DNA from: Escherichia coli
GTDB taxonomy: Bacteria; Pseudomonadota; Gammaproteobacteria; Enterobacterales; Enterobacteriaceae
Reading direction: 5' to 3' (one strand)
Assembly (NCBI RefSeq): GCF_044324785.1
Contig: NZ_CP172127.1
Length of the DNA stretch: 64,000 nucleotides
Shown here in pieces: positions 4,978-39,382 of the stretch (position 1 is the first letter of the stretch; each line of letters begins with the position of its first letter). Under the pieces are notes generated by a model. The model saw nothing but the letters and a program-made list of their open reading frames with translations. It did not search any database and was not told the DNA's origin. Both the position numbers and the translations under genes were made by a program.

Positions 4978-5667
4978 TTACTCACTCTCTGCCGGTAATA
5001 CTGGCATCCAGTCAATCGGTTTCTCGCCACGTTGTTCCAGCCACTGATTTGCCAGCACAAAATGGTTGCAGCCAAAGAACCCGCGATGCGCAGAAAGCGG
5101 TGATGGATGCGGCGCTTTCAGTACGTGATGGCGTTGCTTATCAATAATCGCCCCTTTCTTTTGCGCATGTGAGCCCCACAACAAAAACACCACGCCTTCG
5201 CGATGCTGGTTAATCAGGCTGATGACTTTATCGGTGAAGGTCTCCCAGCCGAGGCTGGCGTGGGAATGCGCCTGACCTGCGCGAACCGTCAACACAGTAT
5301 TGAGTAGCAGAACGCCCTGACGCGCCCAGCTTTCAAGATAACCATGATTAGGGCGGGTGAAACCGGGAATAGTATTTTCCAGCTCTTTATACATATTCAG
5401 CAGTGACGGCGGTGTCGCAATGCCGGGGCGAACGGAAAATGCCAGACCATGCGCCTGTCCCGGTCCGTGATAAGGATCCTGGCCGAGAATCACCACTTTA
5501 ACGTCACCCAACTCTGTAAAGCGGAACGCGTTAAAAACATCCTTTTGTGGCGGATAGATAGTGACGCCGGACTGCCGCTCGCTGGCGACGGTCTGTAGGG
5601 TATTAAGAAAATAGGGTTGTTGCTTCTCTTCAGCCAGCACGTCATGCCAGGTTAATTCGTTTGCCAT
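4978..5667 (-). CDS. ung: Uracil-DNA glycosylase
   Basis: 229 aa; GQDPYH active-site motif; full-length match to recalled Ung. Confidence 0.95.
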
Positions 5668-5797: not shown

Positions 5798-5864
5798 TTG
5801 ATGTAAAACAATAAAATCCATTTGCGACCATACTTGATGTGTGGTTTTTATTGATTTAAATCAA
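5798..5864 (+). promoter_or_regulatory. grcA promoter with two FNR boxes: TTGATgtaaAACAA (5798-5811) and TTGATttaaATCAA (5851-5864)
   Basis: Two TTGAT-N4-ATCAA-type palindromes with centres 53 bp apart, about 108 bp upstream of the grcA ATG; matches the recalled -93.5/-40.5 FNR architecture of yfiD/grcA. Confidence 0.75.
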
Positions 5865-5971
5865 AGATTCAAGGGTGTTTGAGGAGTATATATACACTCA
5901 AGCAACAATGGTTTTACCAATTGGCCGCGACAGGCTGAACAAATCAAATAATTTTGCCGGGGAGGCATCAC

Positions 5972-6355
5972 ATGATTACAGGTATCCAGATTACTAAAGC
6001 CGCTAACGACGATCTGCTGAACTCTTTCTGGCTGCTGGACAGCGAAAAAGGCGAAGCGCGTTGCATCGTTGCGAAAGCAGGTTTTGCAGAAGACGAAGTG
6101 GTTGCAGTAAGCAAACTGGGTGACATTGAGTACCGTGAAGTTCCAGTAGAAGTGAAACCAGAAGTTCGCGTTGAAGGTGGTCAACACCTGAACGTAAACG
6201 TTCTGCGTCGTGAAACTCTGGAAGATGCAGTTAAGCATCCGGAAAAATATCCGCAGCTGACCATCCGTGTATCCGGTTATGCAGTTCGCTTTAACTCTCT
6301 GACTCCGGAACAGCAGCGCGACGTTATCGCTCGTACCTTTACTGAAAGCCTGTAA
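5972..6355 (+). CDS. grcA: Autonomous glycyl-radical cofactor GrcA (YfiD), 127 aa
   Basis: ORF 5954..6355; ATG at 5972 after GGGGAGG; C-terminal glycyl-radical motif RVSGYAV. Confidence 0.95.
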
Positions 6356-26610: not shown

Positions 26611-26649
26611 ACGCAAACGGTTTCGTCAGCGCATCAGATTCTTTATAAT
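26611..26649 (+). promoter_or_regulatory. purL promoter: PurR box ACGCAAACGGTTTCGT (26611-26626) plus -10 TATAAT (26644-26649)
   Basis: Close match to the PurR operator consensus placed over the -35 region, upstream of the purL ATG. Confidence 0.75.
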
Positions 26650-34800: not shown

Positions 34801-35175
<375 letters not shown>

Positions 35176-35188
35176 ACCGCGTCAAGGG

Positions 35189-35214
35189 TTGCCGGATGTT
35201 TCCATCCGGCAACA
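35189..35214. terminator. Bidirectional terminator between convergent glnB and hmp
   Basis: GTTGCCGGATG ttt CATCCGGCAAC perfect hairpin. Confidence 0.8.
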
Positions 35215-35219
35215 TCAAA

Positions 35220-36410
35220 TCACAGCACCTTATGCGGGCCAAAGCATTCGTAATGAATGTTTTCCTGCTTCACGCCCAGATCCACTAACTGTTTCGCGGC
35301 AAACTGCATGAAGCCAACCGGGCCGCAGAGATAGAACTGCATTGTCGGATCGCTGAACGCACCTTCCAGTTTGCTCAAATCCATCAGACCTTCGCTATCA
35401 AACTGACCTTTAGCGCGATCGGCTTCGCTTGGCTGACGATACCAGGTGTGCGCGGTAAAGCGCGGCAGTGCTTGCCCCAGTTCCTTAACTTCATCGGCAA
35501 AGGCGTGAACATCGCCATTTTCTGCCGCATGGAACCAGTTCACTTGTGCTGTGTGGCCAGCTTTTGCCAGCGTGTCGAGCATTGCCAGCATTGGCGTTTG
35601 ACCGACACCGGCAGAGATTAACGTCACTGGTGTGTCATCTGCGACAGCCATAAAGAAATCACCTGCTGGAGCAACCAGTTTCACGACATCGCCAACATTG
35701 GCGTGATTGTGCAGCCAGTTGGATACCTGCCCGCCCTCTTCGCGTTTCACCGCAATACGATAGCCTTTGCCATCCGGTTTGCGAGTCAAAGAGTACTGAC
35801 GAATTTCCTGATGCGGGAAACCTTCCGGCTTCAGCCAGACGCCGAGATATTGCCCCGGACGGTATTCTGCCACTGCGCCACCGTCGACCGGCTCCAGTTC
35901 GAAGCTGGTGATAAGTGCGCTGCGCGGTGTTTTAGCCACAATGCGGAAATCGCGAGTACCTTCCCAGCCACCGGCTTTGCTGGCGTTTTCGTTATAGATT
36001 TCCGCCTCGCGATTGATAAATACATTAGCCAGTACGCCATAGGCTTTACCCCACGCGTCCAGCACTTCCTGGCCCGGGCTGAACATTTCGTCCAGCGTCG
36101 CCAACAGGTGTTCGCCGACGATGTTGTACTGTTCCGGTTTGATCTGGAAACTGGTGTGCTTCTGCGCGATTTTTTCTACCGCTGGCAGCAGCGCAGGCAG
36201 GTTTTCAATATTACTGGCGTAGGCGGCAATGGCGTTAAACAGGGCTTCACGTTGATCGCCATTACGCTGGTTACTCATGTTAAAAATTTCTTTGAGTTCT
36301 GGGTTATGAGTAAACATACGGTCGTAGAAATGGGCGGTTAACTTTGGCCCTGTTTCCACCAGTAAAGGGATGGTGGCTTTTACTGTAGCGATGGTTTGAG
36401 CGTCAAGCAT
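35220..36410 (-). CDS. hmp: Flavohaemoglobin (NO dioxygenase), 396 aa
   Basis: ORF 35220..36431; internal ATG (cat 36408-36410) gives [17 protein letters not shown]...; globin plus FAD/NAD reductase domains. Confidence 0.97.
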
Positions 36411-36427
36411 ATGGTCTTCCTTTTTTT

Positions 36428-36461
36428 GCATCTTAATTGATGTATCTCAAATGCATCTTAT
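36428..36461. promoter_or_regulatory. hmp promoter operator: NsrR-type palindrome (AAGATGCATTTGAGATACATCA on the hmp strand) with overlapping FNR-like TTGATgtatCTCAA
   Basis: Palindrome 18-51 bp upstream of the hmp ATG with a duplicated TGCATCTTA element; matches the recalled NsrR/FNR repression site. Confidence 0.7.
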
Positions 36462-36605
36462 AAAAAATAGCCCTGCAATGTAAATGGTTCTTTGGTGTTT
36501 TTCAGAAAGAATGTGATGAAGTGAAAAATTTGCATCACAAACCTGAAAAGAAATCCGTTTCTGGTTGCAAGCTCTTTATTCTCCAAAGCCTTGCGCAGCC
36601 TGAAG

Positions 36606-36621
36606 GTAATCGTTTGCGTAA
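36606..36621 (+). promoter_or_regulatory. Possible PurR operator in the glyA promoter (GTAATCGTTTGCGTAA)
   Basis: Contains the CGTTTGCGT core of the PurR box about 120 bp upstream of glyA. Confidence 0.4.
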
Positions 36622-36737
36622 ATTCCTTTGTCAAGACCTGTTATCGCACAATGATTCGGTTATACTGTTCGCCGTTGTCCAACAGGACCGCCTATAAAGG
36701 CCAAAAATTTTATTGTTAGCTGAGTCAGGAGATGCGG

Positions 36738-37991
36738 ATGTTAAAGCGTGAAATGAACATTGCCGATTATGATGCCGAACTGTGGCAGGCTATGGAGCAG
36801 GAAAAAGTACGTCAGGAAGAGCACATCGAACTGATCGCCTCCGAAAACTACACCAGCCCGCGCGTAATGCAGGCGCAGGGTTCTCAGCTGACCAACAAAT
36901 ATGCTGAAGGTTATCCGGGCAAACGCTACTACGGCGGTTGCGAGTATGTTGATATCGTTGAACAACTGGCGATCGATCGTGCGAAAGAACTGTTCGGTGC
37001 TGACTACGCTAACGTCCAGCCGCACTCCGGCTCCCAGGCTAACTTTGCGGTGTACACCGCGCTGCTGGAACCAGGTGATACCGTTCTGGGTATGAACCTG
37101 GCGCATGGCGGTCACCTGACTCACGGTTCTCCGGTTAACTTCTCCGGTAAACTGTACAACATCGTTCCTTACGGTATCGATGCTAGCGGTCATATCGACT
37201 ACGCCGATCTGGAAAAACAAGCCAAAGAACACAAACCGAAAATGATTATCGGTGGCTTCTCTGCATATTCCGGCGTGGTTGACTGGGCGAAAATGCGTGA
37301 AATCGCTGACAGCATCGGTGCTTACCTGTTCGTTGATATGGCGCACGTTGCGGGCCTGGTTGCTGCTGGCGTCTACCCGAACCCGGTTCCTCATGCTCAC
37401 GTTGTTACTACCACCACTCACAAAACCCTGGCGGGTCCGCGCGGTGGCCTGATCCTGGCGAAAGGTGGTAGCGAAGAGCTGTACAAAAAACTGAACTCTG
37501 CCGTTTTCCCTGGTGGTCAGGGCGGTCCGTTGATGCACGTAATCGCCGGTAAAGCGGTTGCTCTGAAAGAAGCGATGGAGCCTGAGTTCAAAACTTACCA
37601 GCAGCAGGTCGCGAAAAACGCTAAAGCGATGGTAGAAGTGTTCCTCGAGCGCGGCTACAAAGTGGTTTCCGGCGGTACTGATAACCACCTGTTCCTGGTT
37701 GATCTGGTTGATAAAAACCTGACCGGTAAAGAAGCTGACGCCGCTCTGGGCCGTGCTAACATCACCGTTAACAAAAACAGCGTACCGAACGATCCGAAGA
37801 GCCCGTTTGTGACCTCCGGTATTCGCGTGGGTACTCCGGCGATTACCCGTCGTGGCTTTAAAGAAGCCGAAGCGAAAGAACTGGCTGGCTGGATGTGTGA
37901 CGTGCTGGACAGCATCAATGATGAAGCGGTTATTGAGCGCATCAAAGGTAAAGTTCTCGACATCTGCGCACGTTACCCGGTTTACGCATAA
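36738..37991 (+). CDS. glyA: Serine hydroxymethyltransferase, 417 aa
   Basis: ORF 36732..37991; ATG 36738 after AGGAG; PLP-lysine motif [14 protein letters not shown]. Confidence 0.98.
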
Positions 37992-38024
37992 GCGAAACGG
38001 TGATTTGCTGACAATGTGCTCGTT

Positions 38025-38128
38025 GTTCATGCCGGAAGCGGCATGAACGCCTTATCCGGCCTACAAAACTTTGCAAATTCAATATATTGCAATATCCGTG
38101 TAGGCCTGATAAGCGTAGTGCATCAGGC
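38025..38128. repeat. REP/BIME cluster downstream of glyA
   Basis: Hairpin GTTCATGCCG...CGGCATGAAC, then REP copies GCCTTATCCGGCCTAC and inverted GTAGGCCTGATAAGCG...CATCAGGC. Confidence 0.8.
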
Positions 38129-38149
38129 AATCTTAGGTTTGTGATCATC

Positions 38150-38171
38150 AAGGCTTCCTTCGGGAAGCCTT
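38150..38171. terminator. Hairpin AAGGCTTCC ttcg GGAAGCCTT between glyA and yphH (putative terminator)
   Basis: Perfect 9-bp stem with tetraloop; flanks are not strongly T-rich. Confidence 0.45.
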
Positions 38172-38188
38172 TCTACGTTATTGCGCCA

Positions 38189-39382
38189 TCAAATCTGCCG
38201 TAACTGCGCCTCAACATACAAATAGCCAATTCCCAGCACCTGTTGTGCGCGGCTTAATTGCCCAAAGCCAATCTGTGTCGCTTTCACGCTCGGTCCTTCG
38301 TCGCGGTCGAAAGGGTTAAATCCCGTCTGGCGAATGATGGTATTAAGCCAGTTCTCACCAAAGGCACAACTGCGACCGTACAACCAAATCTGATTAATAT
38401 TGAGGATGTTGAGGAAGTTATACAGACTCAAACCAATGGCGTTGGCAGAGCGATCAACCCAACTGGTGATCCACGGTTCTCCACTCTGCCAGGCAGCGAT
38501 TAACTGCGCAGTAGTCAGTTTTTCAGGATCAAGCTGAGTATTAACCGGTTGTGATTTTAGCCATACCCGCGCCTGTTTTTTTAATGCGCTTAACGAGGCG
38601 ACGGTTTCCAGGCAGCCATAACGTCCGCAGTCGCAGACGACGCCATCCGGATTAACGATGGTGTGACCAATCTGTCCGCTACCATACAAACTGCCGCGAT
38701 AAATTTGCTCGTTAATCACGAACGACGAGCCAATGCCGTAATCAACGTTGATCACGCAGAAATCCCGGCCCTGCGAATTATTTTGCCATTTCTCCGCCAG
38801 CGCCAGCATCACGCAGTCATTATCGACCATCACCCGAATGCCGAGCTTCTCTTCCAGCAGATACTTTACCTCAACCGGCGTTGTCCACGGTGCTTGCGGC
38901 ATGGTTTGCGACACGCCAGTCACCGGATCAACCTGACCGTGGATTGCCAGCGCCAGGTTGATGGTACGGTCCGGCCACAATTTACGGTGGCGATGCCAGC
39001 ATTTTTCGATTTCGGACAGCAGCGCCTGCGGCGTCGGTGCATCAATCTGTAAATACTCAAATTCACCTTTCGGACTTAAACAGGCGTTAGCGACCTGACA
39101 CTCAATACTGGTGGGCGTCACGTTCAGGCACAGCGTCCAGTCACCTTCCGGCGCAATCAGCCATGTACCGCTACTATGCCCGCGCGTCTGGCTTTCATCG
39201 TCGATATTCACCACCCGTTTTTCGCTTTCCAGTTCCTGCAAAATATTACTGACCGCCGGAATCGAAATTTGCGCCAGCCGGGCCAGGGTTGATTTATTGG
39301 CGCGCTTTTGCCGGTACAGCAGTTCCAGAATCACGCATTTGTTATGGTGGCGAATCTGTTGATTATTAATGCAGGCTCTCAT
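38189..39382 (-). CDS. yphH: ROK (NagC/Mlc)-family transcriptional regulator YphH, 397 aa
   Basis: ORF 38189..39388 (GTG); ATG (cat 39380-39382) gives MRACINNQQIRHH...; N-terminal HTH and ROK CxCGxxGC zinc motif. Confidence 0.85.
   Translation of the reverse strand: MRACINNQQIRHHNKCVILELLYRQKRANKSTLARLAQISIPAVSNILQELESEKRVVNIDDESQTRGHSSGTWLIAPEGDWTLCLNVTPTSIECQVANACLSPKGEFEYLQIDAPTPQALLSEIEKCWHRHRKLWPDRTINLALAIHGQVDPVTGVSQTMPQAPWTTPVEVKYLLEEKLGIRVMVDNDCVMLALAEKWQNNSQGRDFCVINVDYGIGSSFVINEQIYRGSLYGSGQIGHTIVNPDGVVCDCGRYGCLETVASLSALKKQARVWLKSQPVNTQLDPEKLTTAQLIAAWQSGEPWITSWVDRSANAIGLSLYNFLNILNINQIWLYGRSCAFGENWLNTIIRQTGFNPFDRDEGPSVKATQIGFGQLSRAQQVLGIGYLYVEAQLRQI

Follow-up and report, generated by a model that had tools for sequence, protein, structure and literature searches.

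Positions 36411-36737 of the window (the whole 64-kb stretch of Escherichia coli DNA that was analysed) constitute, as judged from the sequence and the list of open reading frames, exactly the 327-bp intergenic spacer between two divergent genes, hmp, which acts in nitric-oxide detoxification, on the minus strand and glyA on the plus strand. The identities of these genes and their divergent arrangement, proposed in a preliminary description of this DNA, are borne out both by the open reading frames and by the RefSeq annotation, in which the identical start codons are annotated for hmp and glyA and no feature is placed inside the spacer. The spacer is AT-rich (39% GC vs 52% for the window) and is flanked and occupied by the following features:

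35220-36410, minus strand: coding sequence of hmp (hmpA), which encodes an NO-inducible flavohaemoprotein, with its start codon at 36410-36408 (open reading frame list and annotation of the corresponding E. coli RefSeq record)
36416-36420, minus strand: Shine-Dalgarno-like GGAAG of hmp (putative, as read from the sequence)
36424-36434, minus strand: AAGATGCAAAA in the 5' leader of hmp, resembling an additional NsrR half-site and containing the TGCATCTTA copy at 36427-36435 (direct repeat and published 11-mer)
36437-36459, minus strand: NsrR operator, an 11-1-11 inverted repeat AAGATGCATTT-G-AGATACATCAA (consensus scoring, published ChIP-seq, conservation)
36437-36450, plus strand: TTGATgtatCTCAA, an FNR-like box that agrees with the consensus at 9 of 10 positions and lies in the part of the NsrR dyad nearer hmp (pattern search)
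36455-36460, minus strand: -10-like hexamer TAAGAT of hmp, about 98% conserved, overlapped by the distal NsrR half-site (consensus scan)
36479-36484, minus strand: -35-like hexamer TTTACA of hmp, 18-bp spacer to the -10, 100% conserved in 79 spacers (consensus scan)
36522-36534, plus strand: MetR-like box A TGAAAAATTTGCA, the one nearer hmp, 1 mismatch to TGAA-N5-TTCA, mean identity 0.87
36544-36556, plus strand: MetR-like box B TGAAAAGAAATCC, which has 2 mismatches and lies 22 bp away from box A, mean identity 0.96
36604-36619, plus strand: PurR operator AGGTAATCGTTTGCGT, 13 of 16 positions matching, right half 8/8, central CG (pattern search)
36628-36644, plus strand: TTGTCAAGACCTGTTAT, a highly conserved stretch (mean identity 0.97, 11th among 311 windows) that holds TTGTCA, a -35-like hexamer in the promoter region of glyA (consensus scan)
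36661-36666, plus strand: conserved TATACT, the better-conserved candidate -10 of glyA
36738-37991, plus strand: glyA coding sequence, serine hydroxymethyltransferase, ATG at 36738 (open reading frame list and RefSeq annotation)

A 551-bp query across the spacer gave exactly one match in each of 5425 complete E. coli genomes out of 5426, with all matches being chromosomal and located between annotated hmpA and glyA, and comparison with a K-12 derivative revealed two base differences (36562 and 36596), both outside all sites. Hence, the window represents here ordinary E. coli core chromosome. Both mechanically derived open reading frames are lengthened by an in-frame upstream ATG, that is, at 36431-36429 for hmp (seven additional codons, beginning inside the extra NsrR half-site-like element) and at 36732-36734 for glyA (two additional codons), and RefSeq takes the downstream starts. 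An Rfam scan of 35000-38500 gave no match in the spacer. Downstream of glyA it returned two sub-threshold matches (ES036/CssrF at 38066-38107 with 37.1 bits, where the gathering score is 37.6; minus-strand naRNA4 at 38010-38061 with 29.6, where it is 59.5), which together (38010-38107) look like REP-type repeat elements in the gap between glyA and yphH.

For the comparison across genera, a scan for the Hmp protein in one genome per species yielded 80 Enterobacteriaceae loci, from which 79 distinct spacers, including that of the window, were aligned. glyA is divergent from hmp in all 78 loci with enough flank, the spacer is 272-346 bp long, and its mean identity to the window over the whole length is 0.74. 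The spacer is an already known, classic multi-regulator control region in which the published sites are carried base for base, and we are highly confident that it serves hmp and glyA, the divergent E. coli genes on either side, as a common control region that works as published. The regulators of hmp listed in reviews are MetR (activating), FNR (repressing), Fur (weakly repressing) and NsrR (strongly repressing). The term 'multi-input hub' used in the preliminary description is thus a fair one, albeit for a textbook locus.

The NsrR operator and the predicted hmp promoter

The plus-strand 23-mer TTGATGTATCTCAAATGCATCTT at 36437-36459 matches the NsrR consensus AAGATGCATTT-N-AAATGCATCTT at 18 of 22 positions, with the distal half-site (36449-36459) being perfect (11/11) and the hmp-proximal one (36437-36447) matching at 7 of 11. 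An inverted-repeat finder (seed 6) applied to the spacer found none because the dyad is too imperfect, and the consensus was therefore scored directly. When up to four mismatches are allowed the dyad occurs once in the window; it is still the sole match at up to five, and no match was obtained in 200 Markov-1 null windows, so that its occurrence is far above chance. The preliminary description had assigned an NsrR-type dyad to the reverse strand at 36438-36459, and the 22-mer quoted there (AAGATGCATTTGAGATACATCA) is indeed the reverse complement of exactly those positions.

An NsrR site upstream of E. coli hmp, conserved in enterobacteria, was predicted by Rodionov et al. 2005 (PMC1274295), and occupancy was shown in CFT073 by Mehta et al. 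2015 (PMC5320621), whose NsrR ChIP-seq peak between glyA and hmp has a motif identical to the 23-mer at 36437-36459, in support of the NsrR reading. Two 11-mers are listed at hmp in that study, AAGATGCATTT with a score of 10.92 and AAGATGCAAAA with a score of 5.00, and binding of NsrR in vitro to AAGATGCATTTGATATACATCAT, the orthologous site in Salmonella, is shown by EMSA in a 2023 study. The operator published for E. coli K-12 and CFT073 consists of the same 23 bp at the same position adjacent to hmp and with the same overlap of the -10 region, and no difference was found. Bodenmiller and Spiro 2006 and Partridge 2009 are said to be further sources on the NsrR operator of the E. coli hmp promoter.

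The operator overlaps the predicted core promoter of hmp, with the -10-like TAAGAT from the consensus scan lying in the distal half-site. If this promoter is of the sigma-70 type, with its -35 at TTTACA (36484-36479) and its -10 at TAAGAT (36460-36455), the 23-bp operator would cover it from the -10 to about +12, and NsrR would represent a simple steric repressor. According to the mechanism in the literature, iron-sulfur NsrR on the operator would block hmp transcription, and damage to its cluster by nitric oxide would make NsrR depart and thereby turn hmp on.

The 11-1-11 arrangement is kept, with one to five mismatches, in all 78 scorable aligned spacers (window included), and the distal half has zero to two. 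The mean identity over the 79 spacers is 0.96 for the distal half and -10 region (36449-36459) vs 0.76 for the proximal half (36437-36447), and the proximal half of E. coli, with its four mismatches, belongs to the worst class seen among the Enterobacteriaceae spacers. Most genera read AATGATGTAT.T.AAATGCATCTT, which fits the NsrR consensus better and the FNR consensus worse. In two species the stretch from the NsrR site and -10 to the conserved TGTAAA (-35) is longer than in E. coli, namely by 18 bp in Buttiauxella massiliensis and by 6 bp in Cedecea sulfonylureivorans; the E. coli -35 can then not serve at the same spacing, and the architecture of the hmp promoter probably differs in these species.

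The PurR operator, the glyA promoter region and the MetR-like boxes

The motif scans of the 64-kb window for which the preliminary description had called set the four regulators apart: the NsrR dyad is far above chance, the PurR box at up to three mismatches was seen twice vs 0.68 expected, the FNR box at up to one mismatch seven times vs about 2.3 expected, and the MetR pattern TGAA-N5-TTCA at up to one mismatch is, with 22 matches vs 27.6 expected, no commoner than chance. It follows from these numbers that the FNR motif taken alone is weak evidence.

A PurR-like box had been described at 36606-36621; the box is present, but the full operator occupies 36604-36619, two bases away, with the core CGTTTGCGT at 36611-36619. 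When compared with the PurR consensus ACGCAAACGTTTGCGT, its left half is degenerate and accounts for three mismatches. The right half (36612-36619) is invariant in the 79 spacers (identity 1.00; whole box 0.92), and in some genera the left half is nearer to the consensus, e.g. AGGAAAAC. The other match in the window, ACGCAAACGGTTTCGT at 26611-26626, is the strongest one, with two mismatches. We take it to be, probably, the purL operator, and as such it is a plausible internal positive control. When compared with canonical pur operators such as this one, the glyA box has the more degenerate left half.

Occupancy by PurR was shown by others: the identical 16-mer is given for glyA in the PurR ChIP-chip table of Cho et al. 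2011 (PMC3159470), in which the reverse complement of the purL operator appears as well, and glyA is among the PurR sites that were cross-validated to 'confirmed' in the RegulonDB evidence paper (PMC3548332), so that the PurR reading of the preliminary description was sound. The published E. coli operator and the one found here agree in the 16-mer and in the distance to the glyA ATG (the box ends 119 bp upstream), with no difference. Steiert 1990/1992 is reportedly the source for the glyA PurR operator of E. coli. PurR bound to 36604-36619 when purines are plentiful would lower the transcription of glyA.

The PurR box is located immediately upstream of the core promoter of glyA and ends 8 bp short of the conserved TTGTCA. 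The consensus scan pairs this hexamer with a -10 AATGAT (36650-36655), which is poorly conserved, and GGTTATACTGTT at 36658-36669, in the region of TATACT, has a mean identity of 0.91 in the 79 spacers. Since the TTGTCAAGACCTGTTAT block, within which the conserved stretch 36634-36644 lies, and TATACT are both highly conserved yet 27 bp apart, the assignment of the core glyA promoter is ambiguous. The conserved glyA leader (36667-36745) does not fold into an RNA more stable than its shuffles (z = -0.48), and a structured leader is thus unsupported.

Two MetR sites coupling hmp and glyA were not among the elements listed in the preliminary description. Both MetR-like boxes lie in a conserved block (36521-36558; mean identity 0.89, rank 16 of 290), and their spacing of 22 bp puts these adjacent, conserved boxes on the same face of the helix. 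PMC5002191, citing Lorenz and Stauffer, describes two MetR sites in the regulatory region that the divergent hmp and glyA share, and both genes belong to the enterobacterial MetR regulon (PMC4239095). We infer from the sequence that the published sites correspond to 36522-36534 and 36544-36556: as in the published tandem, there are two TGAA-N5-TTCA-like boxes in the middle of the spacer, here conserved across Enterobacteriaceae, and the match in position is a putative one. Lorenz and Stauffer 1995/1996 and Membrillo-Hernandez 1998 are said to be the sources for the tandem sites. MetR at these central sites would activate glyA with homocysteine present, and depletion of homocysteine by nitrosation would make MetR favour hmp. 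This action of MetR is attributed to Membrillo-Hernandez 1998 and is covered by summaries in the literature (PMC5002191).

The nested FNR box and the repeated element

The FNR-like box, which the preliminary description had placed at 36436-36449, is present one base further on, at 36437-36450. TTGATGTATCTCAA matches the TTGAT-N4-ATCAA dyad at 9 of 10 positions, and the box itself reads TTGAT-N4-CTCAA and overlaps the predicted start-site region, in both respects like the published FNR site of the hmp promoter. Poole 1996 and Cruz-Ramos 2002 have reportedly dealt with this FNR site. An FNR-type box at 36437-36450 would provide a second, weaker anaerobic repression of hmp that is likewise sensitive to NO. 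It lies wholly within the proximal 14 bp of the NsrR dyad, and binding of NsrR and FNR should hence be mutually exclusive. What sets the hmp box apart is that it (i) is nested in the operator of another regulator, (ii) is silent in FNR ChIP-seq (PMC3688515), and (iii) is poorly conserved beyond Escherichia and Citrobacter. Regulator occupancy, on which the preliminary description had made its reading of the region depend, has been demonstrated for NsrR and PurR; in the case of FNR it was not observed in vivo. Repression of hmp by FNR is stated in reviews.

Among the seven FNR matches in the window, two form a pair upstream of grcA. These FNR-consensus boxes, TTGATGTAAAACAA at 5798-5811 and the perfect TTGATTTAAATCAA at 5851-5864, are 53 bp apart and lie between ung (4978-5667, minus strand) and grcA/yfiD (glycyl-radical cofactor; open reading frame 5954-6355, plus strand). 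To us they look like the known tandem yfiD FNR sites.

The duplicated element of the preliminary description, TGCATCTTA, does occur twice, as a direct repeat at 36427-36435 and 36452-36460 with a distance of 25 bp, but the significance implied there is supported neither by statistics nor by conservation: a 9-nt direct repeat arises in about 37% of composition-matched 327-bp sequences and is not significant alone, and the AAGATGCAAAA element at 36424-36434 is confined to Escherichia (mean identity 0.45 in the 79 spacers). It had moreover already been published, as the weak NsrR 11-mer 'hmp (19)' of Mehta et al. 2015 (PMC5320621).

It is then of importance to ask which of these motifs have a regulatory role. 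That all of them are chance consensus matches in an AT-rich spacer is a reading to which we assign practically no weight: short matches are common in such sequence, and neither the MetR nor the FNR pattern taken singly is enriched over chance, but the NsrR dyad does not arise in the null windows, the identical sequences lie under published NsrR (PMC5320621) and PurR (PMC3159470) ChIP peaks, and conservation across genera is strong for both promoter regions as well as for the distal half of the NsrR dyad and the right half of the PurR box. For NsrR and PurR, chance is ruled out by the cited occupancy data. The FNR-like box calls for a more differentiated view. It might largely be a by-product of the NsrR palindrome, owing to the similarity of the half-sites, and provide no independent input, with the effects of FNR on hmp in vivo being minor or indirect; we regard this as possible, yet rather unlikely. 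Of the 10 FNR positions, 6-7 are matched even by an ideal NsrR site, which is thus only three to four mismatches away from the FNR pattern, three to four mismatches are also the commonest class across the spacers, and chance alone is expected to give a one-mismatch box about 2.3 times in 64 kb. The box is not conserved in the orthologous promoters of the 79 Enterobacteriaceae spacers: at most one mismatch is found in only 11 of them (5 from Escherichia, window included, and 6 from Citrobacter), two or more are found in 67 of the 78 scorable spacers, and most Enterobacteriaceae spacers are at the level of an ideal NsrR site. This agrees with Rodionov et al. 2005 (PMC1274295), who saw conservation of the FNR site in E. 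coli and S. typhimurium alone. Myers et al. 2013 (PMC3688515) report a predicted FNR site but no FNR ChIP-seq peak at hmp. The same study, however, reports FNR-dependent expression of hmp and cites earlier in-vitro binding of FNR there, and it is plausible that NsrR occupying the overlapping site is the reason for the missing ChIP signal. Furthermore, the E. coli box reaches 9 of 10 positions, and in Escherichia sp. MOD1-EC7003 (L002) an A in place of C at the equivalent of 36446 yields the perfect FNR consensus TTGATGTATATCAA, with the perfect TTGATgtatATCAA, inside the NsrR dyad. The T at 36437, which creates TTGAT, shifts the site away from the NsrR consensus, also in conflict with a mere by-product. 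The FNR reading of the preliminary description is supported only in part: it agrees with the literature on hmp repression, but lacks a ChIP-seq peak and a good box outside Escherichia and some Citrobacter.

The duplication of TGCATCTTA may likewise be read in functional terms, that is, as marking a third NsrR half-site, AAGATGCAAAA, which would aid hmp repression in Escherichia and compensate for the weak proximal half. We consider this unlikely. The element is an NsrR 11-mer match under the hmp ChIP-seq peak, and binding of NsrR to single 11-bp motifs has been suggested (both PMC5320621); the proximal half it would compensate for is in the worst class, and at least 5133 of the 5426 E. coli genomes carry the 42-mer 36423-36464, which contains AAGATGCAAAA, without any change. 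Against these points, its motif score is less than that of the main half-site (5.00 vs 10.92; PMC5320621), it is not conserved outside Escherichia, composition-matched nulls hold such repeats at the frequency given above, and the resolution of ChIP is too coarse to split the element from the main site 25 bp away.

The finding as such adds nothing new, with the exact sites being contained in literature at the level of RegulonDB. The locus is useful as a calibration, in that a reader working without tools spotted three real operators in raw DNA with errors of one to two bases. What is left is a small question, of specialist interest for the evolution of overlapping operators: do the FNR box inside the NsrR dyad and the additional half-site of Escherichia have a function, or are they incidental? 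One could speculate, although we deem it improbable, that the hmp operator was remodelled in the Escherichia lineage, in that the proximal NsrR half drifted (4/11 mismatches) and acquired, with the T at 36437, a complete FNR half-site, and an extra copy of AAGATGCAAAA arose 25 bp downstream in the leader. If adaptive, such remodelling would represent a lineage-specific rewiring in which affinity for NsrR was traded for competitive access of FNR, with the third half-site compensating, and, if true, it would account for the finding that ChIP shows NsrR bound but does not reveal FNR.
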